Positions 1 through 31,029 of a stretch of 64,000 nt of DNA are shown piece after piece. The position numbers and the translations under genes are program-made. The notes under the pieces are model-generated. The model searched no databases. It was not told where the DNA came from and saw nothing but the letters and a program-made list of their open reading frames with translations. The DNA comes from a virus: positions 90,124 to 154,123 of IMG/VR virus record IMGVR_UViG_3300003873_000002, one strand, 5' to 3'. Position 1 is the stretch's first letter. Each line of letters begins with the position of its first letter.

Positions 1-846
1 AGTTGTTAATTGTGAAATATTTGATTCGTTAGTATCAAGTCTATTTGTATGGTCTGAGATATCGTTTTTGATATTAGAAATATCATCAGTGTTTGTTTTT
101 ATTTTTGTATTTAGTGACTCGTTTGACGTATTGATAGACGAATTCAATTCATTATTTATATCATTGATTTTTGAGGGTGCATCATAGTCCTCAATCGTTT
201 TGATTCTAGTATTTAAACTAGGAATTTTGTCTGTTTCTATTTTAAGTTTATTTATGTTCGTTGCATTATTATTAATGTTATTCTTAATGGTGTTAATATC
301 ATTTTCGATTCCTGGTACTTTGTTTATTTTAGCTAAAGAATCATTATTAAAATCCGATTGCAAAGCAGTAATTTCATTGTTTATGTTATTTAGTGAATCA
401 TTAACAGTTTTCTTGAAATCTGTATATTTGATTTTTAAATCAACAAGATTATCATTTATTTCGCCTACTATTTTTGTAGATGCACCTGTTACACTATCTC
501 TAACACTATTTGCAACATTATCACTAATATGTGTTACAGTATCTGTAAAAACTGCATTGATTGGTACGGCTGTTTTAACTTTATTTTTAAAAAGGTTATT
601 GAATTTTGTATCTAATGCATTGATTTCATTATTAATTGTTTTAAGGTCTTCTGCAGATTTTGCGTCAGTGTAGTCTTTTTGCAACTTTTTAATTTCTAAA
701 ACGAATGCATTATATTCATCATAAAATGCATCAATATTTTCTTTGAGTTGGTCAGATGCTAGATTAAGATTATATCCAGTCAAATCAGAGAATTTCTTAC
801 TGTCAAGACCTTCATAAAATTGGAAAATTGTTTGATTTGGTAGCAT
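1..846 (-). CDS. Tail fibre-like coiled-coil protein, 3' end outside window (missing from ORF track)
   Basis: Hand translation from ATG at 846: MLPNQTIFQFYEGLDSKKFSDLTGYNLNLASDQLKENI..., apparently open to the window edge. AGAGGG RBS. Shares its N-terminal motif with 3899-4351 and 4387-6477, and VPINAVFTDT with 2130-3902. Confidence 0.75.
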   Translation of the reverse strand, partial: MLPNQTIFQFYEGLDSKKFSDLTGYNLNLASDQLKENIDAFYDEYNAFVLEIKKLQKDYTDAKSAEDLKTINNEINALDTKFNNLFKNKVKTAVPINAVFTDTVTHISDNVANSVRDSVTGASTKIVGEINDNLVDLKIKYTDFKKTVNDSLNNINNEITALQSDFNNDSLAKINKVPGIENDINTIKNNINNNATNINKLKIETDKIPSLNTRIKTIEDYDAPSKINDINNELNSSINTSNESLNTKIKTNTDDISNIKNDISDHTNRLDTNESNISQLTT

Positions 847-883
847 GCGACCCTCTTATTTTATTATTAAGTGTTAAAAATTA

Positions 884-1573
884 TTAAAGCAATTCAGCTG
901 TGGGTTTTTTAATATTTTTATATGTATTTTGAATTTCATCAATACGAGATAACTTACCATCAGACGAAATATTTCTTTCAATAGAGTACATACCTTCAGA
1001 AATATTTCCAGCATATTGTAAGCTTAATCCAAGGATTTCTTCCTGTGTTTTTGATGGTAATTGTGTAATTGCTTCAAGATTGCCTGATGTAATTTTGCCA
1101 GTAGAAACTAAATCAATAGATGCTTGTTTACCCAATCGATTAACCCAATATCTTTCTATTGCTTCATCACTACAAAAAGTATCTTCAATATCTGGATTGT
1201 TTTCTTTGATGTCATTGATAATACGACCAAAATTATTAATTTCCGCTTTTAGACGTCTATTTTTGGTTCGCATAGCGTCAATGATACTGTGGATTTCTTC
1301 GACGTCCATTTCTATTAACTGTTTTTTGAGAACATCCATTTCATTATCTCTTTCGCGCTCAGCAATTTTTAATTCAATTATCTTTTTTTTAATTTTGTGT
1401 TCGTTATCATTGTAGTGTTCTAATCTAGTGTCATATTCCATTAAAGCTTGTTTAAAACGATATTCTTCAGTTTGTTGAGATCCAACAACAAACCATTTAT
1501 CTGTAAATGCTGAATTGCTTGCAGCAGTTTCTAGTAATTGGTCAGTTGAATTTGATAAATTTAATTTTAACAT
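884..1573 (-). CDS. Hypothetical coiled-coil protein in tail-fibre cluster
   Basis: 229 aa ORF co-oriented with the tail genes; charged heptad-like middle region. Confidence 0.6.
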   Translation of the reverse strand: MLKLNLSNSTDQLLETAASNSAFTDKWFVVGSQQTEEYRFKQALMEYDTRLEHYNDNEHKIKKKIIELKIAERERDNEMDVLKKQLIEMDVEEIHSIIDAMRTKNRRLKAEINNFGRIINDIKENNPDIEDTFCSDEAIERYWVNRLGKQASIDLVSTGKITSGNLEAITQLPSKTQEEILGLSLQYAGNISEGMYSIERNISSDGKLSRIDEIQNTYKNIKKPTAELL

Positions 1574-1639
1574 TTTGGTATTGCTCTCTTTCTTATTATC
1601 TTATTTGTTCTTATCTGTTCTTATCTATTCTTATTTATT

Positions 1640-2128
1640 TTATTTCGGCTTTTTAAAAACTGGTAATTTTTCTTTATATTTATTTATATCCAAATCTTTA
1701 AGTTTATCGTTTTTGATTAGTTCTATCTGTTTTTCTGTATATGTCCATACATCTGCTTTCCATTTACCGAGTGCTTCCGCAATTTTTCTAAATTTATTCG
1801 GATAGCCCACATAATCACCTATAGATCTAAAATTATATTTAACACTTATAACATCATAAATATACTGTTCTGTGATTGTGTTTAATGTGTTTATTGTGTT
1901 TATTGTGTTTATTGTGTTTAATGTGTTTAATGTATCTGTTTTATCATTGTGGATTTTTGACACGATAACTAATTCGTTATTTTTTATCGTGATTTCTTTA
2001 TCATCACTTATATTAACCGCATTAATAAATGTTTCACGATCAACATTTATTAAATCTGATGGCAGATTTTTGTATTTAGTTAATTTATTTTTTGGGTAAA
2101 ACAGTTTTTTTGATGGTGAATATTTCAT
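1640..2128 (-). CDS. Tail fibre assembly/chaperone-like protein
   Basis: Likely start MKYSPSKKLFYP at 2128, right after the fibre stop. N-terminus resembles Tfa-type chaperones; C-terminal YVGYPNKFRKIAEALGKW motif; internal NT(I/L) 9-bp repeat. Confidence 0.55.
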   Translation of the reverse strand: MKYSPSKKLFYPKNKLTKYKNLPSDLINVDRETFINAVNISDDKEITIKNNELVIVSKIHNDKTDTLNTLNTINTINTINTLNTITEQYIYDVISVKYNFRSIGDYVGYPNKFRKIAEALGKWKADVWTYTEKQIELIKNDKLKDLDINKYKEKLPVFKKPK

Positions 2129-2129
2129 A

Positions 2130-3902
2130 TTAGTAACCCACTGCACTCCATGTAATTGTTGCATCTAATAAATTTGATTTAACAGTAAACCCTTCGCCAG
2201 TTTTTTCTATTAAAAAAATACTACCTGTTAGGTGTTCACCCATCACAGTTAGTGTAATATTTTTACAACTGTGTGGGAAAACGATTGGGTAATTGATTAT
2301 TTTTGTTGCACCACTTTGTATATTAAATGTGCCCCATTGATATATAGTATCAACTACTTCAAAATATCCATTTAATGCGTTATATGTCGTTATAAGACCA
2401 TTAATATCATCAGTATTTTTAAGTACCTTTTCGTTTACTACACGAAGTATATTAGCAGATGCAGCAGACGTAGTTGATGTTGAATCAACTACATCAATTA
2501 CTTTAGTGTGTTTAAGTGCTTCTACCATTGCATCATCAGCAGATTTTTGTGCATTATCTGTAAGATTTTTTAAATCGTGTGCGCCTTTAAGTGAAAATGC
2601 TGTTCCCGAATCATTTCTATCCAATGCATCACTAATTGGTAAATGTGTATCAGTAAAAACTGCGTTCTTGGGTACATCAGTAAGAACTCTACTATTATCG
2701 ACTTTAGAATTAAGCATTGATTGTAAGTTATCAATATTACCAATTAGATGGCGGTGGCTGTTATCTTTAACAGAAATATAACCTTTGTTATCGATATCCA
2801 CATCCAACCCAGATTTTACACCGCCTATGTAATCTGTAGTTGCTACAGGTAAAGTATAAATAGTATCAGTAAACTTCGCATTTAACGGTACATCAGTAAG
2901 AACTCTACTGTTATCGACTTTAGATGCTAAAGCATCTGATAGTGATTCAATTTTATTAAGTGGTATTTTTTTAGCTAGCTGAATACCACCATCTGCATCT
3001 ATATTAAATTGCGAACTATTTTTAACACCACCCAAAATATTTCCCGCAACTGGTAATGTATAAACAGTATCAGTAAATACAGCATCGACGGGGACATCGG
3101 TGTAAACAGTGCATCCATTTACGGTTGAAGAATTTAAACCACTATCATTTGTATCGACAGTCTTGAGTTTAAATAAAATATCAGACGCATTATAATCTAA
3201 TACATTAACTTTTTTATTTAGTGCATCACTAAGTCCGTCTATTGTATTAAATGTATGTCTATGACTATCATTATCAATTGTAGTGGTGCCATCTAATGCA
3301 ACACTTAATCCATTTCCAGTTTTAACTCCACCTAATTTATCACTTGCTGGTGGGAGCACATAAATGGTATCAGTAAAGACTGCATTGATGGGTACATCAG
3401 TAAGAACCCTGTTATTATTGACTTTATTATCTAACGCATTTTGTAAACCAGCTATTGATGATATAGTTAGTGAGTTTAACATTTCACGGTTCATTTTGAT
3501 AAAATCAACAATTTCTTGAAGATCATTTAAATTAATATCATTTGAACCAATTAAAAGTTCAATTACATGAATTCTGTTTTTTAAATTATCGTAAAATGAT
3601 ACCAAATTATTTTCAATAATGTTCTGATATGAATTACTTAAAGAACTTATTGTTTCGTTTAAAAGCTTAATTTCATTATTTATAATTTCTATGGACTTGG
3701 AATTCGATGCTGTTAAATCGCGCTCACTACTAATTAAACTAATTCGCTGCGACACACTATCAACAATATTGCATAATTTGTTAATTGAATCTCGCAATAA
3801 TATATCGTTGTCAATTACAGTAGCTGATAATTTATTAAGTTCATCTCCTATAACTGGGTGATATTTATCTAGATATGTTTTAGAAACGCTTGAAAGATTC
3901 AT
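2130..3902 (-). CDS. Tail fibre protein with internal repeats and gp53-like C-terminal tip
   Basis: Repeated RVLTDVPxNAxFTDT(xYxLP..GGVK) units; HxH motifs (SHRHTF, SHRHLI); C-terminal IYQWG...YPIVFPHSC typical of fibre tips. Confidence 0.75.
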   Translation of the reverse strand: MNLSSVSKTYLDKYHPVIGDELNKLSATVIDNDILLRDSINKLCNIVDSVSQRISLISSERDLTASNSKSIEIINNEIKLLNETISSLSNSYQNIIENNLVSFYDNLKNRIHVIELLIGSNDINLNDLQEIVDFIKMNREMLNSLTISSIAGLQNALDNKVNNNRVLTDVPINAVFTDTIYVLPPASDKLGGVKTGNGLSVALDGTTTIDNDSHRHTFNTIDGLSDALNKKVNVLDYNASDILFKLKTVDTNDSGLNSSTVNGCTVYTDVPVDAVFTDTVYTLPVAGNILGGVKNSSQFNIDADGGIQLAKKIPLNKIESLSDALASKVDNSRVLTDVPLNAKFTDTIYTLPVATTDYIGGVKSGLDVDIDNKGYISVKDNSHRHLIGNIDNLQSMLNSKVDNSRVLTDVPKNAVFTDTHLPISDALDRNDSGTAFSLKGAHDLKNLTDNAQKSADDAMVEALKHTKVIDVVDSTSTTSAASANILRVVNEKVLKNTDDINGLITTYNALNGYFEVVDTIYQWGTFNIQSGATKIINYPIVFPHSCKNITLTVMGEHLTGSIFLIEKTGEGFTVKSNLLDATITWSAVGY

Positions 3903-4386: not shown

Positions 4387-6477
4387 TTAAGGGGCTGATT
4401 GTATTGCTTTTTGCTTTGGTACAAGCACTGATGATGTATTGTTTAAGAATAAGTCATTCCTGCCGTTGAAACCCCAAACCCACACTTTGTGCTCACTATC
4501 TAATGCTACTACAAATTTTCCATGATCAGCACCAGAACATTTTAAATCAATGATATTTACATCATCTGATAAATGGACTCTTGTAAATCTATTTACGGGT
4601 TTATTTGACCCTATCCCGAGTAACCCAAAATCATTAAACCCACATGAATACAAATTATTGTTTTCATCCTTAATAAACATAGCATTTCTATAGGATTCTG
4701 TATAAGAATCATAACCATTCATAAATAATTTAGTAATCTTTTTATTCGTATTAACTAATGTTGGTTCATAAACATTATGAGGTAAATTTAACCCTAATTG
4801 ATAAGATTTATTATAACCCCATGCATATAAATCACCATCAACACCTAGAACAAAAATAGACGCAGGTCCACCACCAAATACTGAAATTTCTTTAGCTTCT
4901 TTTGGTAGAACAGATTGAATTAAAAATGGCTTAACTATATCAATATCTTGTGTGTGGATATCAATTATATTGTTATTTTTATCATAGATGTAACCGCTTC
5001 CGATTTGTCCCCAGTTATTATTTCCGCATGTTAGATACATTGCGTCTTTATTTTTTAATTTTCTATAACAGAGTAAAAATGATTGTGAATTATAGTCATA
5101 AACAGTATTATCGAAATCAGTTGGGTCATCTTTATATTCATATGATCCATCAAGATAACCATTTGAACTATAACCGTTTACACCATAGAACTCAATTTCC
5201 TCATCATTATTTACATGCCCACCCCAAGCTGCAGTAACCAATTCAAATTGATATCGATCAATTTTATCACCTGTACCTAAATTCCCATTGTGATTATAAC
5301 CAGCAGCATAAATTTGACCACCTTTTAAAAGCACTATTGTACTTGCATATCTATTTCCAATTGGCCAAATTTTTTCTATTGTATTTTCAACGAAGAATGA
5401 TACAACAGTAAAGACATTAACATGTCTTGTGCCAACTTCTAGAATATCACCAATTCCCATATTACCATATTCATTGAATCCACTTGCGTACGCAAGACCA
5501 TCTTTTTTAATAATCCACGTTGAACTATAATTAATATGTATCCCTGGTGAAATTGGTCTATAGAATGTAACAACATCAGTTTCAACAAGTTCGGGCACCA
5601 TAATGGGGTCGTTATGTCCTGCACCACAAGCACCTGTTTTATTATGACCCCATGCCCAAAGATTTCCTGAATCAAATAATACAAAACTTTCAGCACCCGA
5701 CATATCAGATTTTACGTATTTTCCTGTTTCGCCAGGGAACGCTAATCGAAATGAGTTCTGCGCATCATATGTTCCATCACCCTTAGGATTATTCTTGACT
5801 GTACCACCAAAAACCCACATTTCATCAAGAACTGTTCTAACCATAGAATTACTAAATGACGATCTACTACAAATTTCAACAGTATCAATACATGATTTAG
5901 TTGTTGGTTTTGGTGCAGTTTTCATATCAATGTATTTTTTTGCATTTAGGTATGTTGCTTTATCACCATTATTGGCGTAGATTTCACATTGATTTATTAC
6001 ATCCATGTCAGAATCTTTTGCAAATTTTTCGGCTGCAGCCAATGTTTCTGTGTCACCTCCATCTGCATATGCTCTGTCGCTGTTTGATTTATCGTTTAAT
6101 TTTTTATCTACAATAACGTTATAATCATTTATAGTTTTTTTCTCTGATTCACTGATAAATTTGCGAATTACTTCATTGAATTGGTTTATTTCAGTTGTGT
6201 AGTAATTTTTGAGTTCGTTTTTTACATTTAAAACAGAGTTATCAGTATAAATTGTTGATTGCTCATAAATATAACCTTCGGGATTTCCACCGGTAAGTAT
6301 AATTTGCATAACTCTATAAAGTTCTTTTATATTAAGTTGCAATTCGAGTGGTGCAAGATTTAGATTTCTACCAGATAATTGGTCATATTTGTTTTTATCA
6401 TTACCTTCATAGAATGTAAAAATATTTTCAACAGGCAGTTTTAAAATAGTTTCTTGTGTAATAGTGGATTTTGGCAT
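4387..6477 (-). CDS. RCC1/BLIP-II repeat beta-propeller protein, probable receptor-binding tail protein
   Basis: Several RCC1-like repeats (GNLWAWGHNKTGACG, GQIYAAGYNHNGNLGTG, GDLYAWGYNKSYQLG, LYSCGFNDFGLLG) after the shared N-terminal fibre module. Confidence 0.75.
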   Translation of the reverse strand: MPKSTITQETILKLPVENIFTFYEGNDKNKYDQLSGRNLNLAPLELQLNIKELYRVMQIILTGGNPEGYIYEQSTIYTDNSVLNVKNELKNYYTTEINQFNEVIRKFISESEKKTINDYNVIVDKKLNDKSNSDRAYADGGDTETLAAAEKFAKDSDMDVINQCEIYANNGDKATYLNAKKYIDMKTAPKPTTKSCIDTVEICSRSSFSNSMVRTVLDEMWVFGGTVKNNPKGDGTYDAQNSFRLAFPGETGKYVKSDMSGAESFVLFDSGNLWAWGHNKTGACGAGHNDPIMVPELVETDVVTFYRPISPGIHINYSSTWIIKKDGLAYASGFNEYGNMGIGDILEVGTRHVNVFTVVSFFVENTIEKIWPIGNRYASTIVLLKGGQIYAAGYNHNGNLGTGDKIDRYQFELVTAAWGGHVNNDEEIEFYGVNGYSSNGYLDGSYEYKDDPTDFDNTVYDYNSQSFLLCYRKLKNKDAMYLTCGNNNWGQIGSGYIYDKNNNIIDIHTQDIDIVKPFLIQSVLPKEAKEISVFGGGPASIFVLGVDGDLYAWGYNKSYQLGLNLPHNVYEPTLVNTNKKITKLFMNGYDSYTESYRNAMFIKDENNNLYSCGFNDFGLLGIGSNKPVNRFTRVHLSDDVNIIDLKCSGADHGKFVVALDSEHKVWVWGFNGRNDLFLNNTSSVLVPKQKAIQSAP

Positions 6478-6837
6478 TTCTTTTTCCTTTGTACTTAACG
6501 ATTATTTAATCCAAACATCTTTCTATTATTTTGAAAACTGTACAGATTACATCAATTCCTTTAATTTAAATCAATTTCAATTGAATCAATTGTTTCAATT
6601 AATTCATTTTTAATAAAATAAATTAGCATATTTTTACAGCAGTATTTAATATTTGTATATCATATGGTTATCTGGTTATCTAAATATTTGTATTATTTGT
6701 ATTTGTGTTGTCTAAATACCAAAATATATGAATAATGTATTCTGACTCAATAAAAATTATAAAATCATAAATTCTACATATTGTTCCAAAATGGAACTCA
6801 ATTTTCCCTAAAACAGAAATCACCTTTTTTTCGAGGA

Positions 6838-7517
6838 ATCAGCTGTAACTTGTTGATTCTTTATTTTAAGAATCAGCTGTAACTTGTTGATTTTACATAT
6901 ATACCTTCCCATTTAGAATGTATTTGTTTTTCTTTTAAAATCAACAAGTTACCTCGTTTTTCCCACATGTTTTCTTCGAAAATCTGAAAACAAATTTTGT
7001 TTAAAATCAACAAGTTAACATGAAAATTTTCAAGTGCGCAAAAAACGCATCGATTTTGCCATGTTTTTAGAGCACCATAAAAAAAGCGCATTTTTTAACT
7101 TGTTGATTTTAAATGAAAAACATCAAATTTGTACACTATGTAAAATTAGAAACACTTTTCTATATAAAATATATATTACTAAGTAACATATATGTTTCAG
7201 ATGTAATGGCAAACCGGCCCGGATTTGGGACTGCCTGCCTGGATGGGTGGGTGTGGTGTAATGAGTGAAGTGTATTTGAGATAGTTGAATACAATTTCCA
7301 AAAACTTTTTTTACGTGTACAGATTTGACCTTTTCTGTTTAAATTCAACAAGTTATTGGATTCTCTAGATATCACAATTTTTAACCTTTTGTTGTACAGA
7401 TTTAGTGTTTTTTGTTTAAATTCAACGAGTTAATGATTTCATGGTTCCAAAAACTTTTTTCTACGTGTACAGATTTGACCTTTTCTGTTTAAATTCAACG
7501 AGTTATTGCATCTTTTG
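6838..7517. repeat. Long non-coding direct repeat, copy 1, with array of IHF-consensus sites
   Basis: Near-identical to 62995-63632. Multiple AATCAACAAGTTA (WATCAANNNNTTR) or 1-mismatch sites in both orientations. 74-bp identical AT-rich core at 7139-7212. Confidence 0.9.
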
Positions 7518-7943
7518 TTGTGGTTTATTTTTTTTCCCATGAGTTTGGATTTTGGATATTTTCTATTTAAAGTCAATAAGTTATTGGTTTTTAGTGCATT
7601 TTATGTGACATTCATGAGCATTGAATTAATCTGACTAAATTGAACTGAACCAATATTACATAACACATACAGATATGTTTAGATAGTTTAAATATAGTTT
7701 AAACTTCATATAACGCGCTGTATGAGACGATCTCTTTAAAAATGACATATGATATGACAATAAAAAAATAATCACATACTGAGCTTTATTTTAAAAATGA
7801 TTTATTTTATAATTTATAAAATTTTGTTTTAATTTGTTTAAATTAAGATATAGACTTCAAAAGTATTAAATAACATTGATTAACATTGATTAATACATCA
7901 GATCAATTATGTAAAATAAAATAAAGGAAAATAAGGAATTTAA

Positions 7944-8432
7944 ATGGAAAATATTAAATTGTCCAAGAACTTCACATTAAGCGAGTTTCTTAAATCTTCT
8001 ACTGCCTCAAGATTGGGGATTAATAATACACCAACACAGGAAATTGTCGATAATTTAAAAGATTTATGCGAAAATGTGCTTCAGCCAGCTAGGGACCATT
8101 TTGGTGCAATTAAAATTAATTCTGGTTATAGATCAGCAGAACTTTGTGAGGCCATTGGATCCACATCTCATTCAAATCATACATTAGGGTTCGCTGCAGA
8201 TGTTGAAACAAATGTCCCTAATATTGAATTATTAAATTGGTTTTATGATAATGTTGAATATAAAGAACTTATTGGTGAGTATTTTGGTGAGAATCCTAGT
8301 GATGGCTGGGTCCATATCGCATATCAAAAAGGTAACAATAAAGGCGAGCTAAAAATCAAAACTAAGGATATTAATTACAAAAGAGTCGATATCAATGAAT
8401 TAAATGAAATATGTGGGTACACTGGGGTATAA
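7944..8432 (+). CDS. Peptidase M15 family Zn peptidase, probable endolysin
   Basis: LSKNFTLSEF, INSGYRS, SNH..G.AAD, WVHI motifs; AAGGA RBS. Confidence 0.85.
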   Translation: MENIKLSKNFTLSEFLKSSTASRLGINNTPTQEIVDNLKDLCENVLQPARDHFGAIKINSGYRSAELCEAIGSTSHSNHTLGFAADVETNVPNIELLNWFYDNVEYKELIGEYFGENPSDGWVHIAYQKGNNKGELKIKTKDINYKRVDINELNEICGYTGV

Positions 8433-8433
8433 A

Positions 8434-9006
8434 ATGAAAATGCTTGAACAGATCATCAATAATATCAAAAACGATATGATAATAGAAACTGCAGAAGTCA
8501 ATGATACACTTAAAAACATGAAATCTCAAAAAGATATTTTTATTCTTATAATTGGTGGTTCTGGATCAGGTAAAAACTATTTCTATGAAAAAAATCTTAA
8601 AAACATCCCATTGGTCGATAATGATGCGATTACAAAAAAATTATCTGGTGGTGATTTTGAGAAAGCAAGAAAGCTCGTTTCTAAAGCAACATCTATTGCA
8701 AATAAAATGCTAACAGACGCATTTAATGAGAAAAAAAGTGTATGCCAGGTTTCAACTGGCACAAACGAAAAAGCAGTTTTTAATAAATTTAAAAAGGCTA
8801 AAGATGCGGGGATGAAGACTGGGTTGATACTCATTGACGCAGATATTAACGATGCACAAAAAAGAAATGTAAATAGGGCTAGTGGTGGCAAACAGGGCCT
8901 TGTGCCTGATTGGAAAGTAGAAAAAACAAACATCGCGGCCAAAAAAACATATAAAAATATCAAAAACAACAACGTGGTTGATTTCGCATTTATTGCAAAA
9001 AATTAA
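8434..9006 (+). CDS. P-loop kinase (zeta-toxin/AAA_33-like)
   Basis: Walker A GGSGSGKN, LVDNDAI, AQKRNVNRA lid; start placed at ATG 8434 just after the M15 stop. Confidence 0.65.
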   Translation: MKMLEQIINNIKNDMIIETAEVNDTLKNMKSQKDIFILIIGGSGSGKNYFYEKNLKNIPLVDNDAITKKLSGGDFEKARKLVSKATSIANKMLTDAFNEKKSVCQVSTGTNEKAVFNKFKKAKDAGMKTGLILIDADINDAQKRNVNRASGGKQGLVPDWKVEKTNIAAKKTYKNIKNNNVVDFAFIAKN

Positions 9007-9133
9007 AAGCTTCTAATACATTATACAAACAGTATACAAACAGTATACAAACGGTATACAAACAGTATACAAACACTTCAGTGACCATAGCTTGACCATA
9101 GCTTGACCATATAAGTTTAAAGACATCAATGAT

Positions 9134-9188
9134 AATCAATAAGTTGTGCTCATTTAGAGATTAGTGTAAATGACATAACTTATTGATT
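9134..9188. promoter_or_regulatory. Two inverted IHF-consensus sites upstream of flagellin
   Basis: AATCAATAAGTTG (9134-9146, +) and AATCAATAAGTTA (9176-9188, -) both fit WATCAANNNNTTR. Confidence 0.5.
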
Positions 9189-9256
9189 TTGATAATAAAA
9201 ACACTTATTTAACTATTTAAACACAGATAATTAAAAAAAATATTTGAAAATAATTG

Positions 9257-9283
9257 TAACGTTTTTTGTTAAAAGGCCGATAT
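9257..9283 (+). promoter_or_regulatory. Sigma-28 (FliA) promoter of flagellin
   Basis: TAACGTTT-N11-GCCGATAT versus consensus TAAAGTTT-N11-GCCGATAA, ending 62 bp before the flagellin ATG. Confidence 0.8.
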
Positions 9284-9345
9284 ATAATATAAGAGAGAAA
9301 CAATTAAAACAATTAAAAATATTTTTAAATTAAGGGAGAATTATC

Positions 9346-10170
9346 ATGTCAATGGTTATCAACACAAATATGGGTTCAGAAAACGCAGTTCGTTTATTGG
9401 ATCAATCAAGTCGTGAACAAAAAACAGCCATGGAGCGTTTAACCTCAGGTTTGCGAATCAATCATACTGCTGATGATGCGGGAGGTGCCGCCGTTGTTGT
9501 TAGAATGGATTCACAAGTTAAAGGCATCGATATGTCGGTTCGAAACTCAAAAGATGGTATTAACTTGATTCAAACAATGGATGGTGCCGCACAAGAAGTT
9601 GTGAATATGCTACAACGCATTCGTGAATTGGGTGTGCAAGCAGCTAACGAAACTTACACCTCAGCTCAAAGAAATCAAATGAACCAAGAAGTGAGTCAAT
9701 TAAAAACAGAAATTGACCGGGTGGCTAAAACCACTAAATTTAATGGTATTGCCTTAATGAATGGGTCAAATAAAGTTTTAAGTTTCCAAGCTGGTTGGGA
9801 GACTGCTGCAGAAAATACCATTAGTGTTAGTACTTTTAACTTTAGTAAAGGAAATATGTCTGTTGGAGTAGCAAAAATTACCACTCAAGCATTAGCGCTT
9901 TCTGCCATTGGAAAAGTCGATATTGATTTATCAAAAATCAATAAAATCCGAGCTAAATGGGGTGCTGTACAAAACCGCTTTGAACACACTATTACAAATC
10001 TTAATAATGTAAACGAAAATATCAAAGCCTCAAGAAGCCAGATTCAAGATACTAATTTTGCAAAAGAGAGTGCTGCGCTAGCCAAAACACAGGTGTTGCA
10101 ACAGGCAGGAATGAGTATGTTAACACAATCAAATCAAAATAGCAAACAAGTGTTGAGTTTATTGAGATAA
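9346..10170 (+). CDS. fliC: Flagellin (minimal D0/D1-only type)
   Basis: INTN...MERLTSGLRIN..ADDAGG, LQRIRELGVQAAN, TKFNG, RAKWGAVQNRFEHTI, SRSQIQDTNFAKE..QVLQQAG..VLSLLR; GGGAG RBS. Confidence 0.95.
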   Translation: MSMVINTNMGSENAVRLLDQSSREQKTAMERLTSGLRINHTADDAGGAAVVVRMDSQVKGIDMSVRNSKDGINLIQTMDGAAQEVVNMLQRIRELGVQAANETYTSAQRNQMNQEVSQLKTEIDRVAKTTKFNGIALMNGSNKVLSFQAGWETAAENTISVSTFNFSKGNMSVGVAKITTQALALSAIGKVDIDLSKINKIRAKWGAVQNRFEHTITNLNNVNENIKASRSQIQDTNFAKESAALAKTQVLQQAGMSMLTQSNQNSKQVLSLLR

Positions 10171-10217
10171 TAAGGTATAATACATAAAGAGAAATAAAAA
10201 ATAAAACGAGCACTATT

Positions 10218-10634
10218 ATGAAAATCGATCCTATTAATGTTGTACAGACGCGTATTATTATGGCACAAGAAAACTCAAATAAAGAAAATACAAAAATACT
10301 TGATTTGAATGCAAAAAAAGAACGAGGTGATTCTGTCGATATAAGTCTTGAGGCATATAAAAGACTATCAAAAAATAAACCTATTGAAAATAGGAAAACT
10401 GATGGTACTAGCACTAATGGGATTACAAAAGACCACAACCAACCAAACATTCTAGACCATAAACAAACACAAATGATGTTTGTAAAAAAGGAAGGTGTTA
10501 AGGATATGGTTGTAGTATTTAAAGATAAAAAGACTGGCGATGTAGTAGCAGAAATACCGAGCAAAAATGCAATTGAGAATAATAAAAGACTTAAAAATTT
10601 TTTAGATAACATTACACTCGATTTATTAGCTTAA
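10218..10634 (+). CDS. flaG: FlaG family protein
   Basis: C-terminal MVVVFKDKKTGDVVAEIPSK matches the FlaG core; canonical position directly after flagellin. Confidence 0.7.
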   Translation: MKIDPINVVQTRIIMAQENSNKENTKILDLNAKKERGDSVDISLEAYKRLSKNKPIENRKTDGTSTNGITKDHNQPNILDHKQTQMMFVKKEGVKDMVVVFKDKKTGDVVAEIPSKNAIENNKRLKNFLDNITLDLLA

Positions 10635-10687
10635 ATACATTGAAATACAATGAGACACATCAATAAAATCAATCTATGGGGACAACA

Positions 10688-10798
10688 ATGACAGTAACAG
10701 AGATTAAGGAAAAGATTAGAATAGCTGAATCATCAGGTGATATTAATGAAGCTAATAAACTGAGAGAAGAATTGGCAAAAATGGTAGTTAATTCGTGA
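10688..10798 (+). CDS. Small hypothetical helical protein (36 aa)
   Basis: MTVTEIKEKIRIAESSGDINEANKLREELAKMVVNS; GGGG RBS; GTGA overlap with the next ORF. Confidence 0.45.
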   Translation: MTVTEIKEKIRIAESSGDINEANKLREELAKMVVNS

Positions 10799-11010
10799 TT
10801 GAAGAAATTAACTTAGACCGCATTAATTCTAATAAAAAAATTATCACAATTCTCACTTCGGTTGGCATTAAAACCAATGGGGCAAAAAAGTGGTTAGTGG
10901 ATAATACTGATGATATTATAGGAGTGTTGCAACAAAATAATGAACCATATATATTCACAATAAAAGAATATGAATTATTGCGCACTGAATTAATTAAAAA
11001 ACAAAAATAA
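10795..11010 (+). CDS. Hypothetical protein
   Basis: 71 aa ORF coupled to the preceding small ORF. Confidence 0.45.
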   Translation: MIEEINLDRINSNKKIITILTSVGIKTNGAKKWLVDNTDDIIGVLQQNNEPYIFTIKEYELLRTELIKKQK

Positions 11011-11038
11011 CCAATACAATTATGCGTCTGAAGAACCA

Positions 11039-11656
11039 ATGAAATATCGATATAAAACTTCATCTTTATCTGTGAATAGATTGCAGAGACTTAGTATGCA
11101 CTCAATGTTTCAAAACGAAACAAAAATTAGAGCCAGAGGGGTTGGTGGGTTTAAGTATATAGGGTACAGATTTGTTTATCACACCACCTCATCCCAGCGA
11201 TTTAAAAAAAGATGGAAGAATTTAGAAGGTACACCACTTGAGGTGCATATTAAATTGTATTTTTATGTAACTGGGGCCAAATATAAAGGCAAAAAGCGCG
11301 AAAGGTATTTGATTTGTGCTCAATTTCCATATAGTCGTGATTTCAAAACACTTAAAAATTTATATGATTTACCCGTAAAATTATTTTCATCAGACCCATC
11401 ATTTAAGTATTATTTTTCATATGCACTGAATAAACATAATGCTGTCATAACAGATGAAAATGTTATATTAAGACATCTCGGAAAATCTTTAACAAATATA
11501 CCAAAAAAACGGAACCCAAACCTTAATACAGAACTCACAAAACATTTTTATAAATTTTTTATATTTGCAAAAACAAAAAGACCAAATGATATATTAAAAA
11601 AACAATATAACCTTGGTAAAAAATTTAATATGCCAATTAAAAATAAAAATGTGTAA
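11039..11656 (+). CDS. Hypothetical basic protein
   Basis: 205 aa, K/R-rich, no family recognised. Confidence 0.6.
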   Translation: MKYRYKTSSLSVNRLQRLSMHSMFQNETKIRARGVGGFKYIGYRFVYHTTSSQRFKKRWKNLEGTPLEVHIKLYFYVTGAKYKGKKRERYLICAQFPYSRDFKTLKNLYDLPVKLFSSDPSFKYYFSYALNKHNAVITDENVILRHLGKSLTNIPKKRNPNLNTELTKHFYKFFIFAKTKRPNDILKKQYNLGKKFNMPIKNKNV

Positions 11657-11717
11657 TTTATTTGATAATTAAATAATTTTAATACAACAAACATAACAAA
11701 CACAATAAGGCTAAACG

Positions 11718-11912
11718 ATGTTAAGACAAATAATAAAAGAAGCACTTAGTGGTGATAGAGAACAATATATAAAATATTTTAACGGTTTACTTGATAAATA
11801 TAACGTATCATCACCGAGCGAACTTTCAGTTAAAGACAAAGCAAAATTTTTTAATGATGTTGATGCTGGTTGGGTGTCAAAAAAGGAATTAGCAAAAAAG
11901 AAAAATAAATAA
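11718..11912 (+). CDS. Small T4-like phage protein, possible internal head protein
   Basis: YIKYFNGLLDKYNVSSPSELS..KAKFFNDVD resembles a module recalled from T4-like head-associated proteins; IKE near the N-terminus. Confidence 0.5.
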   Translation: MLRQIIKEALSGDREQYIKYFNGLLDKYNVSSPSELSVKDKAKFFNDVDAGWVSKKELAKKKNK

Positions 11913-11935
11913 ATATCAAGAAAGGAAATAAAAGC

Positions 11936-12043
11936 ATGAAGGATTTTTTTAAAAAAATTTTAAAAATTATTAGCCCTACTAAAAAAACAAACGATAATTT
12001 TTCATCATACCGCAGAACTACTAGACGCCATATAAATAAATAA
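11936..12043 (+). CDS. Small basic hypothetical protein (35 aa)
   Basis: AAGGA RBS, MKDFFKKILKIISP... Confidence 0.35.
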   Translation: MKDFFKKILKIISPTKKTNDNFSSYRRTTRRHINK

Positions 12044-12100
12044 TAAACTGTTATAAACTGTTATAAACTGTTATAAACTGTTATAAACTGTTATAAACTG
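12043..12100. repeat. 10-bp tandem repeat (ATAAACTGTT)n, representative of many intergenic arrays
   Basis: Directly visible; similar 9-12 bp arrays occur at many gene junctions (see findings). Confidence 0.9.
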
Positions 12101-12109
12101 CTGTAAAAA

Positions 12110-12622
12110 ATGAATATAAAACACTCCCATACAGATTTGATGATTTTGAACCGCAAAGATATAAAAACAGTGCGTTCATATTTGTTATCAATACAAAATT
12201 CAATATGCCCATTATGTGGGTATCATATAGATGAAGCTGATGCAGTTCTTGACCACCAACACCGGACAAAATTGGAAACAATCGGTGTTAATGGCGCTGG
12301 TCTTGTAAGAGGTGTTCTTCATAGGAATTGTAATTCAGCTGAAGGTCAATTGCTTAGCAAATTTAAGCGAAGTGGTGTTAAAGATATTAAATTCGCTGAT
12401 TTCCTTAGAAAACTTGCTAATTATTACGAAGAAACTAATTATAATTTAATACACCCTAACGAAACAGAAGCCCCCGCTAAAATGGGTAAAAGACTATTTA
12501 ATAGAATATCAAAAGCATATAGTGTTAAATACCCTAAAAGAAAACCACTCGAATATCCCAAATCAGGGTTATTAACTAAAAAATTCCAAGATTTAATCGA
12601 AGAATTGGAAATTAGCAAATAA
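12110..12622 (+). CDS. gp49: Recombination endonuclease VII
   Basis: CPLC, AVLDHQH, GLVRGVLHRNCNSAEG. Confidence 0.9.
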   Translation: MNIKHSHTDLMILNRKDIKTVRSYLLSIQNSICPLCGYHIDEADAVLDHQHRTKLETIGVNGAGLVRGVLHRNCNSAEGQLLSKFKRSGVKDIKFADFLRKLANYYEETNYNLIHPNETEAPAKMGKRLFNRISKAYSVKYPKRKPLEYPKSGLLTKKFQDLIEELEISK

Positions 12623-12650
12623 AAAAATAAAAAAAAATAAAAAATAACTG

Positions 12651-12679
12651 TTGACTTGTATCAAGAAATATAGTATAAT
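12651..12679 (+). promoter_or_regulatory. Sigma-70-type promoter
   Basis: TTGACT-N17-TATAAT with upstream A-tract. Confidence 0.75.
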
Positions 12680-12707
12680 AATCTTATTAAAAATTTAGGA
12701 GATTACT

Positions 12708-13478
12708 ATGATTAATACACACAATACTGATAATATGTCTATTGATGGAAACATTGACGATGATTTTGTTCTTGATATTGAAGAAAAAGAAAACCTTTTA
12801 GTAGACGAAATTCATGACGACAACGAAACTGCTGAAAGTGAGATAAAAACATCAGGGGAATTTTTAAGGGGTGTTTCTAAAAAGGTTAATTATATTAATG
12901 ATTTAGAATTAACTACTAAGTTATTAAAAGAATCAAAAGAATATAAAGACTATGCATTGTTTAAAGAAAATAACCCCGGTGGTGAATATAAATATGTTAA
13001 AAGAGAAGCACCATCCGACGAGTTATGCCTGAATTTTCTTAAAATTTATGAAGGAATAACACGCAAACCAAATTTTAGTGGCTATTCCGATGATTATAAA
13101 GAAGAATTCTTTTCGAAAGCACAATATTTATTTATCAGACATTGGTTTAAATTTGATCCATTAAAAGTAAGAAAAAATTATGTTGTAAATCCGAATTCTA
13201 AATTAAAATCAGTTAATGATATAGAGGTTAAAAAATCAAAAAACGGTGTTAAACTAAAAGAAAAAATTGATGCGGGTGAATTAACATTAAAACCAGAAGA
13301 GGCGTTTGAAGGGGGTTTTAGCTGGTTTACAATGCTTTGTGCTACTGCATGTGTTGATAGTATCACAATGTTTAAAAACCGTAGAGAAAAACAACGCGCA
13401 TTAATTAAATCAGTAGTGGATAAAAATACACTAAGTGACGAGCAGATAAAATTCAATTATGACTGGATTGATTTATGA
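12708..13478 (+). CDS. gp55: Late-transcription sigma factor
   Basis: NYINDLEL, FLKIYEGITRKPNFSGYS, FDP...FSWFTMLC; acidic N-terminal extension. Confidence 0.8.
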   Translation: MINTHNTDNMSIDGNIDDDFVLDIEEKENLLVDEIHDDNETAESEIKTSGEFLRGVSKKVNYINDLELTTKLLKESKEYKDYALFKENNPGGEYKYVKREAPSDELCLNFLKIYEGITRKPNFSGYSDDYKEEFFSKAQYLFIRHWFKFDPLKVRKNYVVNPNSKLKSVNDIEVKKSKNGVKLKEKIDAGELTLKPEEAFEGGFSWFTMLCATACVDSITMFKNRREKQRALIKSVVDKNTLSDEQIKFNYDWIDL

Positions 13479-13540
13479 AATAAAACATATTAATTCTATA
13501 AAAACCCAGTGGAAACCCAGTAGAAATTCAGGGAAAATTC

Positions 13541-14119: not shown

Positions 14120-14899
14120 ATGAAACTTGTTGAATTATATAGTAGTTGTGTTGTTATTTCTATTGCGACATCATTATCAACTGTTATGTTGTATAATCAC
14201 CACACCAATGAAAACCACGCTAATCAAAGTATTAAAAATAATGTTAATCACACTCAAATCCCATTTGTTTCTGATTTAAAACACCTTCAACCAAATAAAA
14301 AAAGTAGTCCAATTGCACAACCACCACAACCACCACAACCACCACAACCACCACAACCACCACAACCACCACAACCACCACAACCACAACCAGATAAACA
14401 AGTGAAAGTGTCACCAGATAATGAATTGGAATATTTGACGGTTAAAACTAATTATATAAGCAGTGATTATAAATATGAATTAAATCTTCTAGCAGAAGCC
14501 ATGTTTTTTGAAGCACGCGGTGAGGGTAAAATGGGTGTAACAATGGTTTATGATGTGATTATGAACCGTGTGCACAACAAACATTTTAGTGATACTATAG
14601 AAGGTGTTATACGAAGACATAAGGCATTTAGTTATCGCCATGCATTTACATATATTGAAAGACAAAATATTATGAAAAAACATCAACACACATATAATAA
14701 AATCAAAAATATTGCAAACAAATTGCTTCATAGCAAAACTTATAGGGATTATACTCTAAATTCAGTTTACTATTTTAATTTCAATAAAGTGCACCCATCA
14801 TGGTATTCACATGAATATGTGACTGTAGTATACAAAAACCATGTATTTTTGAACGATTGTCGAAGAGCAACACAACCGCACACAATCGCACTTAAATAA
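14120..14899 (+). CDS. SleB/Hydrolase_2-family cell-wall hydrolase with N-terminal membrane anchor and PQP linker
   Basis: LLAEAMFFEARGE..VIMNRV..IEGVI..AFS, HVF; hydrophobic N-terminus; (CAACCACCA)n encodes QPP repeats. Confidence 0.85.
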   Translation: MKLVELYSSCVVISIATSLSTVMLYNHHTNENHANQSIKNNVNHTQIPFVSDLKHLQPNKKSSPIAQPPQPPQPPQPPQPPQPPQPPQPQPDKQVKVSPDNELEYLTVKTNYISSDYKYELNLLAEAMFFEARGEGKMGVTMVYDVIMNRVHNKHFSDTIEGVIRRHKAFSYRHAFTYIERQNIMKKHQHTYNKIKNIANKLLHSKTYRDYTLNSVYYFNFNKVHPSWYSHEYVTVVYKNHVFLNDCRRATQPHTIALK

Positions 14900-14961
14900 T
14901 AATTAATTAAATAAATCTAAATAAATCTAAATAAATTTATAAAATATCTCAGGAGATTAAA

Positions 14962-20360: not shown

Positions 20361-20425
20361 TCTCAATAAACAGCATTAAACAGCATTAAATAAAAACATC
20401 AATATACATCAATATACATCAATAA

Positions 20426-27476: not shown

Positions 27477-27591
27477 ATTGATATAACCATCAATAAACAC
27501 AATAAACACAATAAACACAATAAACACAATAAATTAAATAATATCTAGTAATAAACACATATAAACCATGTGAACACATAAGGACGCAATA

Positions 27592-28822: not shown

Positions 28823-29083
28823 GTGTCATTCTTTGCCATTCTTTGCCATATATGACATTATGCCAGTCAAACAATATAATCTAATTAATCCCCATCAAAC
28901 TATAATTGTTTGTACATTATAAACACATTATAAACACATTATAAACACATTATAAACACATTATAAAACTCAGTACAATGCGCTATATGCGATGATATTA
29001 TTTCATAGATGGTTTTATGTCAATTTAATAAAAACATACCGTTAATCTCATTAAAATAAAAAAATAAAAAATAAAATAAACTG

Positions 29084-29112: not shown

Positions 29113-29752
29113 AACTATAAATTAATAAAAACCATAAAAATAACAAAGATGTAATATGAAATGTTATAAAAACTTCAGCGGCGATAATGTTGTATTGTTT
29201 AGAAATAAAACTAGATTGGTTTAAACAAAAACTCTTATGATAATTATAATGTGGAATGCGTTGAATTTGGAATTGACATCGATTTTGGAATTCAAATGCA
29301 CACATAGATGTTGGTAATATGAAGTTAAACCAAATAACACTTTGTTTTCTGGCGGTTTAGGTAGTTATTTGTCAATACATGATAAGGGTTTAAAAGGGTG
29401 TGGTGAATATAACAAACATATGTCGTGTATTATGATGATTCAGGCTTTTTAAATACCTTTTAATATTCTGGATATTTATAAATCTGGTGATGAGTATAAC
29501 ATTTCTAGCAATGTGAAGAGCCTATTGAATACCCATTAAATCTTATGAAAAACTCAATAATTATTTGGGAAAATCATTCAGATATTTTCACGAACCAGAT
29601 TATAGTAAAGATTTTTTGATGTGTTGATTTGTATGTGGGAAAATATTCAATAGTTGCAAAAAGAAATAAAATAGTGTAAAATAGTGTAAAATAGTGTAAA
29701 ATAGTGTAAAATAAGTACAGATTTAAATTATTAACAACGAGCAGGAGTAATT

Positions 29753-30658
29753 ATGGAAGATGAAATCAGTATCGACATTGGGTATGGTCACTGTAAGGTA
29801 TTATATGCGGGTAAATTAGTAAAATTTCCAACAGCGATTAGTTATGCAAATGATTTAGGTATTTCGTGTGGGGAAATGAATTCTTATGAGTTCGAAGGTA
29901 AACAATATAGCGTTGGTTCGGACGCTTCTGATGAATCATTTAGTACAACTGATTACAAATTGCTATATAAGTTCGCGCCATTAATTGTTTTTCATATTTT
30001 AAGTAAATTTGATAGAGTTAATGCTGACACACCTATCAATATTAATACAGGATTATCAATTGTTGATTGGGTCCATAAAGATGGATTTATTGATAGACTA
30101 TCATGTATTGAAGTAAACGGTAAAAAAATTGATTTGGATGTTACGTTAATCCCACAAGGGGCTGGAGTTGCAGTAGATTGGGTAGAGAATCAAAATAATT
30201 CTATTTACCCGAACAAACTTTCTGTTATTGATATCGGATTTAACACCATTAATCTAATTTATATGGAAAAAGGTAGATTAATCAGACAAAAATCAAAACC
30301 ATATCCTGGGCATGGTATTGTTTCAATTATTAATACATTCTCGACATACCTAGAAAACAAATATTCAATGAATTTTAGTCAGCAAGAAGCTAATGATATT
30401 TTCCTCGATGGTGAATTCTTCTACAATGGTGAAGACCAAGAAGATGTTAAATCGCACATCAAAACAATCAAGGAGCAATTTGTTTCAAAACTTTTCAATA
30501 CTATTTTGGTTGACGCTAAAAAAACATTTGCAACATCAAATGTAGTGCTTATTGGAGGTGGTGGCGCTTATATGCTCGATGACATCCCAATGCCACCAAA
30601 TGTTGAATTTGTCGCTAAAGATTATGAATACTCGAATGTCCGTGGATATGCGATTTAA
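29753..30658 (+). CDS. ParM/StbA-family actin-like ATPase
   Basis: IDIGYGHCK, PQGAG, VIDIGFNT, GGGGA actin-fold motifs; AGGAG RBS. Confidence 0.85.
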   Translation: MEDEISIDIGYGHCKVLYAGKLVKFPTAISYANDLGISCGEMNSYEFEGKQYSVGSDASDESFSTTDYKLLYKFAPLIVFHILSKFDRVNADTPININTGLSIVDWVHKDGFIDRLSCIEVNGKKIDLDVTLIPQGAGVAVDWVENQNNSIYPNKLSVIDIGFNTINLIYMEKGRLIRQKSKPYPGHGIVSIINTFSTYLENKYSMNFSQQEANDIFLDGEFFYNGEDQEDVKSHIKTIKEQFVSKLFNTILVDAKKTFATSNVVLIGGGGAYMLDDIPMPPNVEFVAKDYEYSNVRGYAI

Positions 30659-30726: not shown

Positions 30727-31029
30727 ATGCAAACAGAAACAAAAGAAATTACTATTAAACTTGATGGGAATTCAATTGATGTTTTAAAACAAGTTGATAG
30801 TATGTACAGAGAATCAATCATTAATATCGGAATTCGTATGATTTCCTTGACACCATATTATAAATTTTTATCTGGAAAGGATGATGTAGCTGACATTAAT
30901 GCATTGACATCACTAGATACAAACTGCAATACCAATGCACTACTCGCTAGTGAAAAATCACAAGAAGTTGTGAACGAAGCGCCATCAAAATTAAAAAGGA
31001 AAACAAAAAGCTCATGGGACGATTTATAA
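30727..31029 (+). CDS. Small protein downstream of ParM, ParR-like candidate
   Basis: Position; N-terminal beta-alpha-alpha-like pattern (EITIKLD...RESIINIGI). Confidence 0.45.
   Translation: MQTETKEITIKLDGNSIDVLKQVDSMYRESIINIGIRMISLTPYYKFLSGKDDVADINALTSLDTNCNTNALLASEKSQEVVNEAPSKLKRKTKSSWDDL

Follow-up and report, generated by a model that had tools for sequence, protein, structure and literature searches.

A 64,000-nucleotide (nt) window of environmental viral DNA, running from position 90,124 to 154,123 of IMG/VR record IMGVR_UViG_3300003873_000002 and forming the final 64 kb of this 154,123-bp contig, carries a pair of flagellar genes between genes of a T4-type tailed phage. The first, fliC (9346-10170, + strand), encodes an intact flagellin of 274 amino acids (aa) that comprises the D0 and D1 domains only, and the second, flaG (10218-10634, + strand), encodes a 138-aa homologue of the filament-length regulator FlaG. 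Judged from sequence comparisons, the pair represents one fliC-flaG unit captured from a flagellar locus of the Piscirickettsiaceae (Thiomicrospira group, sulfur-oxidizing bacteria). We propose, as a possibility that we still hold to be rather less than probable, that the phage possesses a "motility auxiliary gene", with its own flagellin and FlaG plugged into the sigma-28 checkpoint of the host, which may keep up or retune the swimming of infected cells.

The phage flagellin

Both terminal flagellin domains were recovered well above the Pfam thresholds, with Flagellin_N (PF00669) covering residues 5-142 (E 7e-37, 127 bits versus a cut-off of 26.6) and Flagellin_C (PF00700) covering residues 189-273 (E 6e-22, 78.3 bits versus a cut-off of 23). 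This agrees with the original prediction, which had been made from the letters of the window alone and had called an intact 274-aa flagellin at this place. Its description of a protein with almost no D2/D3 region was correct as well, yet this trait is common to the whole donor family (272-278 aa), and the short length therefore does not point to trimming by the phage. All 98 columns that are invariant in an alignment of 11 family sequences are kept in the phage protein. Among the positions that are at least 90% conserved across 120 homologues it differs at six, some of which are changed likewise in its nearest relatives P0002 and P0023; the sole phage-unique change at these positions, T61I, is conservative and affects a residue that we take to be a hydrophobic position in Salmonella FliC. 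Identity to relatives was lowest in the surface segment spanning residues 143-188 (39-70%) and amounted to 57-95% in D0/D1.

Comparison of fliC with the two closest genes for which DNA was at hand gave NG86 dN/dS values of 0.072 and 0.073, at dS values of 1.4 and 1.9 that are near saturation, and pairs of bacterial flagellin genes ranged from 0.07 to 0.145. These values, which lie far from the value near 1 that had been named beforehand as evidence against the cassette, show that fliC is under strong purifying selection. In the maximum-likelihood (ML) tree the phage copy is nested among bacterial flagellins, and its terminal branch (0.046 versus a median of 0.074) shows no acceleration. The AlphaFold2 model reached predicted local distance difference test values above 90 across D1, with low values for the D0 termini of the kind that a monomer should show, and Foldseek matched it to filament-forming flagellins of about 270 aa (structures from Roseburia, Kurthia, Shewanella and Pseudomonas) with template-modelling scores of 0.72-0.75. 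Conserved positions, branch length, dN/dS and the structural model gave no signature of a dominant-negative or crippled protein. As far as sequence can show, the phage flagellin keeps the features needed for export and polymerization, and the natural reading is that the phage supplies its own filament subunit; this part of the original prediction stands, and the purposes suggested there (superinfection exclusion, carrier-state motility, a dominant-negative effect or a chaperone sink) are conjectural.

The phage FlaG

The Pfam FlaG family (PF03646) matched residues 77-128 of the product of the downstream gene with a marginal score of 25.9 bits against a cut-off of 23.8, a score that is backed by matches to a known structure and to genes in flagellar loci. 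The sole sequence match of the phage protein in the PDB was the FlaG entry 6JSX (E 0.007); a profile including host FlaGs matched the same entry at E 8e-11, and YvyC (2HC5) was matched in the PDB as well. A tblastn search retrieved, at 23-38% identity, FlaG genes that follow a flagellin gene in dozens of loci of the Piscirickettsiaceae and Vibrionaceae. The C-terminal domain (approximately residues 77-132) is conserved and the N-terminal half is divergent, and the spacer between fliC and flaG measures 47 nt in the phage versus 24-71 nt in host loci. On the strength of these matches, the gene that had originally been called FlaG-like can be taken to encode a divergent but genuine FlaG.

FlaG antagonizes the docking of FliS-flagellin at FlhA (PMC11536152), and the phage FlaG keeps the conserved C-terminal domain, which is consistent with a cassette that interferes with the host flagellum. 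Excess FlaG would then block the FlhA gate and/or surplus flagellin would titrate FliS. The costly export of flagellin would be halted or motility altered, which would spare energy and precursors for phage production or perturb the FlgM/sigma-28 circuit. A sigma-70-like match (TTGAGT-N17-TATAAT, 10/12) at the end of fliC could drive flaG separately, but in DNA this rich in AT, promoter-like sequences with such a score are no more frequent than chance predicts (28 found versus 28 expected). Moreover, a blocker would need no fully conserved, polymerization-competent flagellin with a dN/dS of 0.07, and the gene order and promoter type are those of the hosts, where the pair builds filaments. We consider interference decidedly unlikely.

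Origin of the cassette

The phage flagellin was 73-79% identical to bacterial Piscirickettsiaceae copies and 86-90% identical to two copies without known context. The nearest named flagellins were those of Sulfurivirga, Galenea, Thiomicrorhabdus, Thiomicrospira and Hydrogenovibrio (58-75%), and the best match among species-representative genomes (77%) came from a metagenome-assembled genome of an uncultured member of the Piscirickettsiaceae. In the ML tree of 77 sequences, the phage flagellin grouped with three metagenomic sequences (79-90% identity) in a clade with 99% support in the Shimodaira-Hasegawa-like approximate likelihood-ratio test, and this clade was nested among Sulfurivirga/Galenea-type flagellins. 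One of the three is located on the bacterial-looking locus L005 (JGI 3300051640, 1-3680; GC 39%), which encodes two tandem flagellins with 79-81% identity to the phage protein, followed by a 372-aa gene without family match and a 167-aa FliD_C-like gene; no flaG lies between the genes of this 3,680-nt locus. The organism carrying L005 may be the nearest to the true host. The other two members of the clade, L015 (86%, 865-bp contig) and the partial protein P0023 (90%, 2181-bp contig), are without recoverable context.

Bacterial contigs encoding flagellins with 75-77% identity exhibited the gene order maf-fliC-flaG, which in one case was continued by fliC-flaG-fliD-fliS-fliT and flagellar regulators, and the host flagellin loci include genes for a Maf glycosyltransferase and for nonulosonic-acid synthesis. 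FlaGs from host lineages with about 75% identical flagellins were only 28-35% identical to each other, and the identity of 23-33% between these proteins and the phage FlaG therefore fits a co-capture of flaG with fliC.

Base composition at third codon positions (GC3) was 0.284 for fliC and 0.209 for flaG, compared with 0.20-0.29 for phage genes and 0.31-0.63 for the bacterial homologues, and the value for flaG was below that of every bacterial copy examined. The GC3 of fliC was considered as proof of a long residence in the phage, an argument that is weakened by the value of 0.31 for L005; with a closest donor-like locus that is itself low in GC, the composition of fliC alone does not date the capture. 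The same ambiguity is compatible with a passenger without adaptive function, i.e. host DNA that was acquired by a fairly recent illegitimate capture and has not yet decayed, as are the finding of the cassette in a single phage lineage and its absence from the only related contig. However, dN/dS is about 0.07 at a dS of 1.4-1.9 to the nearest known relatives, the phage branch is not accelerated, both open reading frames as well as the ribosome-binding site and the promoter are intact, flaG has a GC3 lower than any bacterial copy, and tandem repeats of the phage type have arisen inside the 5' untranslated region (UTR). A mere passenger is very unlikely on this evidence.

Linkage of the cassette to phage DNA

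Contigs of two sequencing runs, which probably represent the source sample and hence are not independent, were compared with positions 6500-13500 of the window. One unitig (7488-9364) spans the endolysin gene, the kinase-like gene, the spacer, the promoter, the ribosome-binding site and the first 19 nt of fliC, and another (9964-12072) runs from the final ~200 nt of fliC through flaG into phage genes. The depth was ~55 for both of these flanking unitigs and ~62 for the middle of fliC. Both ends of fliC are therefore joined to phage genes at equal depth, which is what the coverage check proposed along with the original prediction had asked for; the cassette is part of the phage DNA and no chimera.

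In the conserved 5' portion of fliC (9364-9445) the unitigs are interrupted. Within 9308-9541 the summed depth climbs to ~160, about threefold the depth on either side, and at 9318, 9331 and 9404 single contigs diverge from the sequence and continue in AT-rich DNA. The raised depth and the branching contigs point to other nearly identical flagellin 5' ends, and the sample therefore contains other contexts for a flagellin 5' end of at least 95% identity. These extra ends could be strain variants or could stem from a host gene recombining with the phage copy.

The breaks, the ~160-fold depth, the exiting contigs and the non-independence of the runs are also the observations that could be brought forward for an assembly chimera, in which phage and host contigs were joined inside conserved flagellin sequence. 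Such a chimera is extremely improbable, as both fliC ends lie on unitigs that continue into phage genes at the depth of the flanks, base composition and repeats are of the phage type in the promoter, 5' UTR, flaG and spacers, and the closest bacterial sequences in any collection reach no more than 79-90% at the protein level. In addition, the 3' end of fliC and flaG are contiguous with 7 kb of phage genes in a second assembly, L016, with no mismatches to the window and 11 deletions of 20-103 nt. L016 was rejected as an independent confirmation; it stems from the same population, is probably an assembly artefact in detail and lends weak support.

The regulatory region upstream of fliC

The spacer of 339 nt between the kinase-like gene and fliC contains, in this order, two tandem-repeat arrays (9018-9111; 11-nt units in 5.3 and 2.7 copies, detected with Tandem Repeats Finder), a terminator-like hairpin with a T-run (9129-9193) and a match to the sigma-28 (FliA) class-III promoter (9257-9283), all on the + strand. 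The promoter match consists of TAACGTTT as the -35 element (9257-9264), an 11-nt spacer and GCCGATAT as the -10 element (9276-9283), and it ends 62 nt before the ATG of fliC. It is the sole 14/16 match to TAAAGTTT-N11-GCCGATAA on both strands of the 154-kb contig, with 0.67 expected per genome in Markov shuffles; the motif GCCGATA occurs twice in the window. In the host locus L002, the corresponding motif ends 66 and 73 nt before the start codons of two fliC genes, and copies of the sigma-28 motif were located by eye in the upstream regions of L004 and L005. A Shine-Dalgarno sequence of fliC (AAGGGAGA, 9332-9339, + strand) was read directly from the sequence. The promoter appears to have been retained from a host-type fliC, as would fit the earlier description of the pair as regulated, and we infer that its use in vivo depends on sigma-28.

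The hairpin, identified as an inverted repeat and by RNA folding, has a predicted free energy of -28.3 kcal/mol versus -12.6 +/- 2.8 for shuffled sequences (z = -5.6), and none of the 200 shuffles was as stable. It probably acts as a terminator that insulates the cassette from transcription of the upstream endolysin and kinase genes. A third small repeat array (9298-9318, + strand) lies inside the 5' UTR of fliC. Tandem repeats of 9-12 nt in 2-6 copies, different in each case, were detected in almost every intergenic spacer of the window, and they constitute a phage-wide intergenic signature that is not specific to the cassette. Besides the arrays at 9018-9111, examples are found at 12043-12100, 14908-14936, 20367-20424, 27491-27541, 28914-28967 and 29667-29713.

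Across the whole contig, early and replication genes of the phage are preceded by TTGACA-N17-TATAATATA, and the structural, fibre and endolysin genes are preceded by ATTAAATAA, about 30-35 nt before the start codon. The latter is likely a gp55-type late promoter that differs from the TATAAATA of T4. Neither the late-type ATTAAATAA nor a full early promoter of the form TTGACA-N17-TATAATATA is present before fliC. The sequence TATAATAT beside the sigma-28 -10 element was considered as an early -10 box and taken as chance, as it lacks a TTGACA -35 element. Given the hairpin, the sigma-28 match and the lack of a phage promoter, the cassette appears to be shielded from the phage programme and connected to the flagellar regulon of the host.

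The phage and the neighbourhood of the cassette

The source contig is classified as viral in IMG/VR, has a completeness of 85% as estimated by CheckV and a GC content of ~30% throughout. It encodes structural proteins of tailed phages (head maturation protease, major head protein, tape measure and baseplate wedge), which match generic head and tail PHROGs weakly, together with T4-type replication genes (topoisomerase II subunits, family-B DNA polymerase, Dda-like and DnaB-like helicases, ribonucleotide reductase and ligase) and genes for recombination and late transcription (endonuclease VII and a gp55-like late sigma factor). The nearest described phages by family-B DNA polymerase are Vibrio phages, with the best match to Vibrio phage phiKT1024 at 34% identity, and this low value suggests a distant, undescribed T4-type lineage. 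By its gene content, the virus would be a virulent-type T4-type tailed phage from a (vent) community of sulfur oxidizers.

Upstream of the cassette, Pfam matches identify a Peptidase_M15_3 endolysin (7944-8432) and an AAA_33/polynucleotide-kinase-like protein (8404-9006), while family matches downstream identify a gp49-like endonuclease VII (12110-12622) and the gp55-like late sigma factor (12708-13478), in accordance with the flanks named in the original prediction. A 205-aa gene downstream of the cassette belongs to clusters that are almost wholly viral. The neighbours of the phage flagellin are therefore the endolysin, the kinase-like gene, flaG and viral hypothetical genes, with no TldR among them; viral genes stand on both sides on one molecule and fliC is under purifying selection, as in other host-derived phage genes. 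The statement that no other flagellar genes are nearby could be extended to the entire 154-kb contig, on which neither tblastn with Maf, FliD, FliS, FliT and NeuB of the host locus nor the Pfam FliS model gave a match. A match to the TnpB/Cas12f TNB domain, as found in TldR-like proteins, was likewise absent from the 154-kb contig, and no Phage_integrase match was obtained, an absence that falls short of proof in a contig that is 85% complete. A search around the cassette for direct or inverted repeats, as expected of a mobile element, yielded only short matches of low identity.

Several other genes of the window were recorded. An actin-like protein (ALP; 29753-30658) with matches to ALP_N (Pfam, E 3.7e-13) and MreB-like_C is followed by a 100-aa gene (30727-31029) without family match, and the two could form a ParM/ParR-type segregation module and would then hint at plasmid-like persistence. 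RCC1 beta-propeller repeats occur in a 696-aa protein (4387-6477, - strand) that is preceded by the late-type motif ATTAAATAA and encoded beside a gp53-like tail-fibre protein (2130-3902); this 696-aa protein is a candidate for the fibre that binds the receptor. A cell-wall hydrolase (Hydrolase_2, 14120-14899) has an N-terminal membrane segment and an exact repeat of eight 9-nt units (14316-14387) encoding a PQP-rich linker; 36 nt of this repeat are missing in the assembly L016.

Possible roles of the cassette during infection

The role we favour, with a confidence that comes close to evenly balanced and remains on the doubtful side of it, is maintenance of the host, in which filament supply and hence swimming and taxis would be kept up after the phage cuts host gene expression. 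The hairpin would stop transcription arriving from the endolysin and kinase genes, and the sigma-28 RNA polymerase of the host would read fliC-flaG from the retained host-type promoter. Expression would be confined to cells that contain free sigma-28, having completed the hook-basal body and possessing an export-competent flagellar secretion system. Host FliS would bind the conserved C-terminus of the phage flagellin, the flagellar type III system of the host would export it, and the subunits would be added at the filament tip under the FliD cap, while the phage FlaG, by analogy with Campylobacter FlaG, may act at the FlhA export gate and tune flagellin delivery. The infected cell could thus continue swimming in the sulfide/oxygen gradient after host shut-off, following the same logic as cyanophage psbA.

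A number of points weigh against host maintenance. As flagellar filaments are stable structures that elongate at their tip alone, new subunits may bring little gain within a short lytic cycle; T4-type phages also commonly take over the host RNA polymerase, and the sigma-28 holoenzyme could then lose its activity. FlaG acts as a brake on flagellin export and thus fits poorly with a cassette that purely boosts supply. No RNA run was found to contain the stretch. With a GC3 of 0.31 at the donor-like locus L005, the composition of fliC by itself gives no date for the capture. The cassette was seen in one phage lineage only, and IMG/VR pattern scans (protein patterns; 11-sequence alignment) detected no other viral copy, although the few patterns make this weak evidence of rarity. 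Finally, the search of related contigs for the same cassette that had been suggested with the original prediction retrieved only the phage contig G001 (30-59% aa identity, 79% complete), which carries no flagellin. G001 shares only the replication module and ends where the cassette region would be, and its missing flagellin is therefore uninformative.

The ALP gene may in addition allow a persistent carrier state, which would favour a conversion-type role rather than maintenance in a lytic cycle. Such a conversion factor, or a remodelling of the filament that masks a receptor, would make the cassette an environmental counterpart of the TldR-FliCP system of FRphi, a temperate siphovirus with a divergent flagellin (FliCP) and an RNA-guided repressor of host fliC (PMC13418256). 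The newly grown filament would display a changed exposed surface (a short variable loop and possibly glycosylation sites) that prevents competing phages, or the progeny of the phage itself, from adsorbing via the flagellum. The drop in identity to 39-70% in the surface segment 143-188, compared with 57-95% in D0/D1, would be in line with this, but the segment is no more divergent than between bacterial relatives. The Maf and nonulosonic-acid genes of the host loci make it probable that the surface is glycan-based and sensitive to Ser/Thr changes, and the phage has several fibre genes including that of the RCC1-propeller protein. On the other hand, only the distal tip would be affected, and with no TnpB/TldR match and thus no repressor of host fliC, host flagellin would dominate unless the phage shuts off host genes. 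In favour of remodelling or conversion, the ALP gene hints at plasmid-like persistence, and against it, no integrase was found on the contig. While FRphi provides a published precedent for phage-driven flagellin replacement, superinfection exclusion via the flagellum was tested in that phage and ruled out (PMC13418256). Taken together, remodelling or conversion is unlikely and ranks second after host maintenance.

Comparison with known systems

The phage cassette resembles the late (class-III) fliC-flaG units of polarly flagellated bacteria (Piscirickettsiaceae loci L002 and L004; Vibrio, Shewanella and Campylobacter) in gene order, protein lengths and the C-terminal domain of FlaG as well as in the sigma-28 promoter type and its similar distance to the start codon. 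Unlike these units, the phage pair stands alone between phage genes, without maf, fliD, fliS and fliT, and exhibits phage base composition together with phage-type tandem repeats in the leader.

Cyanophage psbA is the textbook example of a host-derived auxiliary gene that replaces a host component during infection. Similarly, the cassette is host-derived, is located between core phage genes, is under purifying selection and specifies a product whose supply would stop after host shut-off. In contrast to psbA, the fliC product is an exported structural subunit of an organelle and not a metabolic enzyme or photosystem protein, the gene keeps a host alternative-sigma promoter instead of a phage promoter, and its benefit is only proposed. 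If the cassette is expressed, the concept of auxiliary genes would be widened beyond metabolism to include a secreted subunit of an organelle, and phages would manipulate the motility of chemolithoautotrophs, whose energy depends on their position in the redox gradient. Should the motility-auxiliary interpretation be true, this would be the first lytic phage to maintain a host organelle via the alternative-sigma regulon of its host.

In Campylobacter jejuni, FlaG antagonizes FlhA and keeps the length of the filament in check (Waller et al. 2024, PMC11536152). Like this protein, the phage FlaG is a small member of PF03646 encoded beside a flagellin under a flagellar sigma factor. It differs in its unrelated N-terminal half and is only ~25-35% identical even to gammaproteobacterial FlaGs, and binding to FlhA is predicted by analogy. 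The locus offers a natural test of FlaG and flagellin as a functional unit.

Full-text literature searches for phage-encoded flagellins retrieved only the TldR work, and neither the literature nor the collections searched contained a T4-type phage with fliC-flaG. The novelty that the original prediction had seen in such a pair has to be toned down, as phage flagellins that remodel the host flagellum are already published for temperate TldR-FliCP prophages (PMC13418256). Near-identical DNA was absent from the phages in GenBank, tblastn of the flagellin against 50,697 phage records gave 12 weak matches (at most 47% identity), mostly on tiny or unannotated contigs and none in a T4-type phage, and a scan of metagenome contigs, beyond whose reach the closest relatives lie, had its best match at 61%. 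The phage flagellin matches the flagellin-like PHROGs family phrog_16088 (function unknown) at E 2.5e-56; flagellin genes are therefore not unheard of in phage collections, and no comparable lytic-type example was found.

Phage flagellins were first reported in 2023-2026, only from temperate enterobacterial prophages with an RNA-guided repressor. The FRphi/TldR-FliCP loci occur in Enterobacter and other Enterobacteriaceae (Walker et al. 2026, PMC13418256; earlier bioRxiv 10.1101/2023.11.30.569447), and in FRphi the system enhances motility and immune evasion (PMC13418256). In common with FRphi, the present phage encodes a complete flagellin with a conserved D0/D1 core, which in FRphi is exported by the host machinery and built into the host filament and here may be used likewise. 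An integrase, TldR and the large, highly divergent outer domains of FliCP, all of which characterize FRphi, were not found in the present phage, a T4-type phage of 154 kb with a minimal D0/D1 flagellin that resembles those of its presumed host family, the Piscirickettsiaceae, a flaG partner and a retained sigma-28 promoter. On the basis of gene content, the cassette would extend phage flagellins, so far published from temperate phages, to a virulent-type environmental T4-type phage, and it would represent a second, independent route in which a host-like flagellin is kept together with FlaG and relies on the flagellar sigma factor of the host instead of a repressor.

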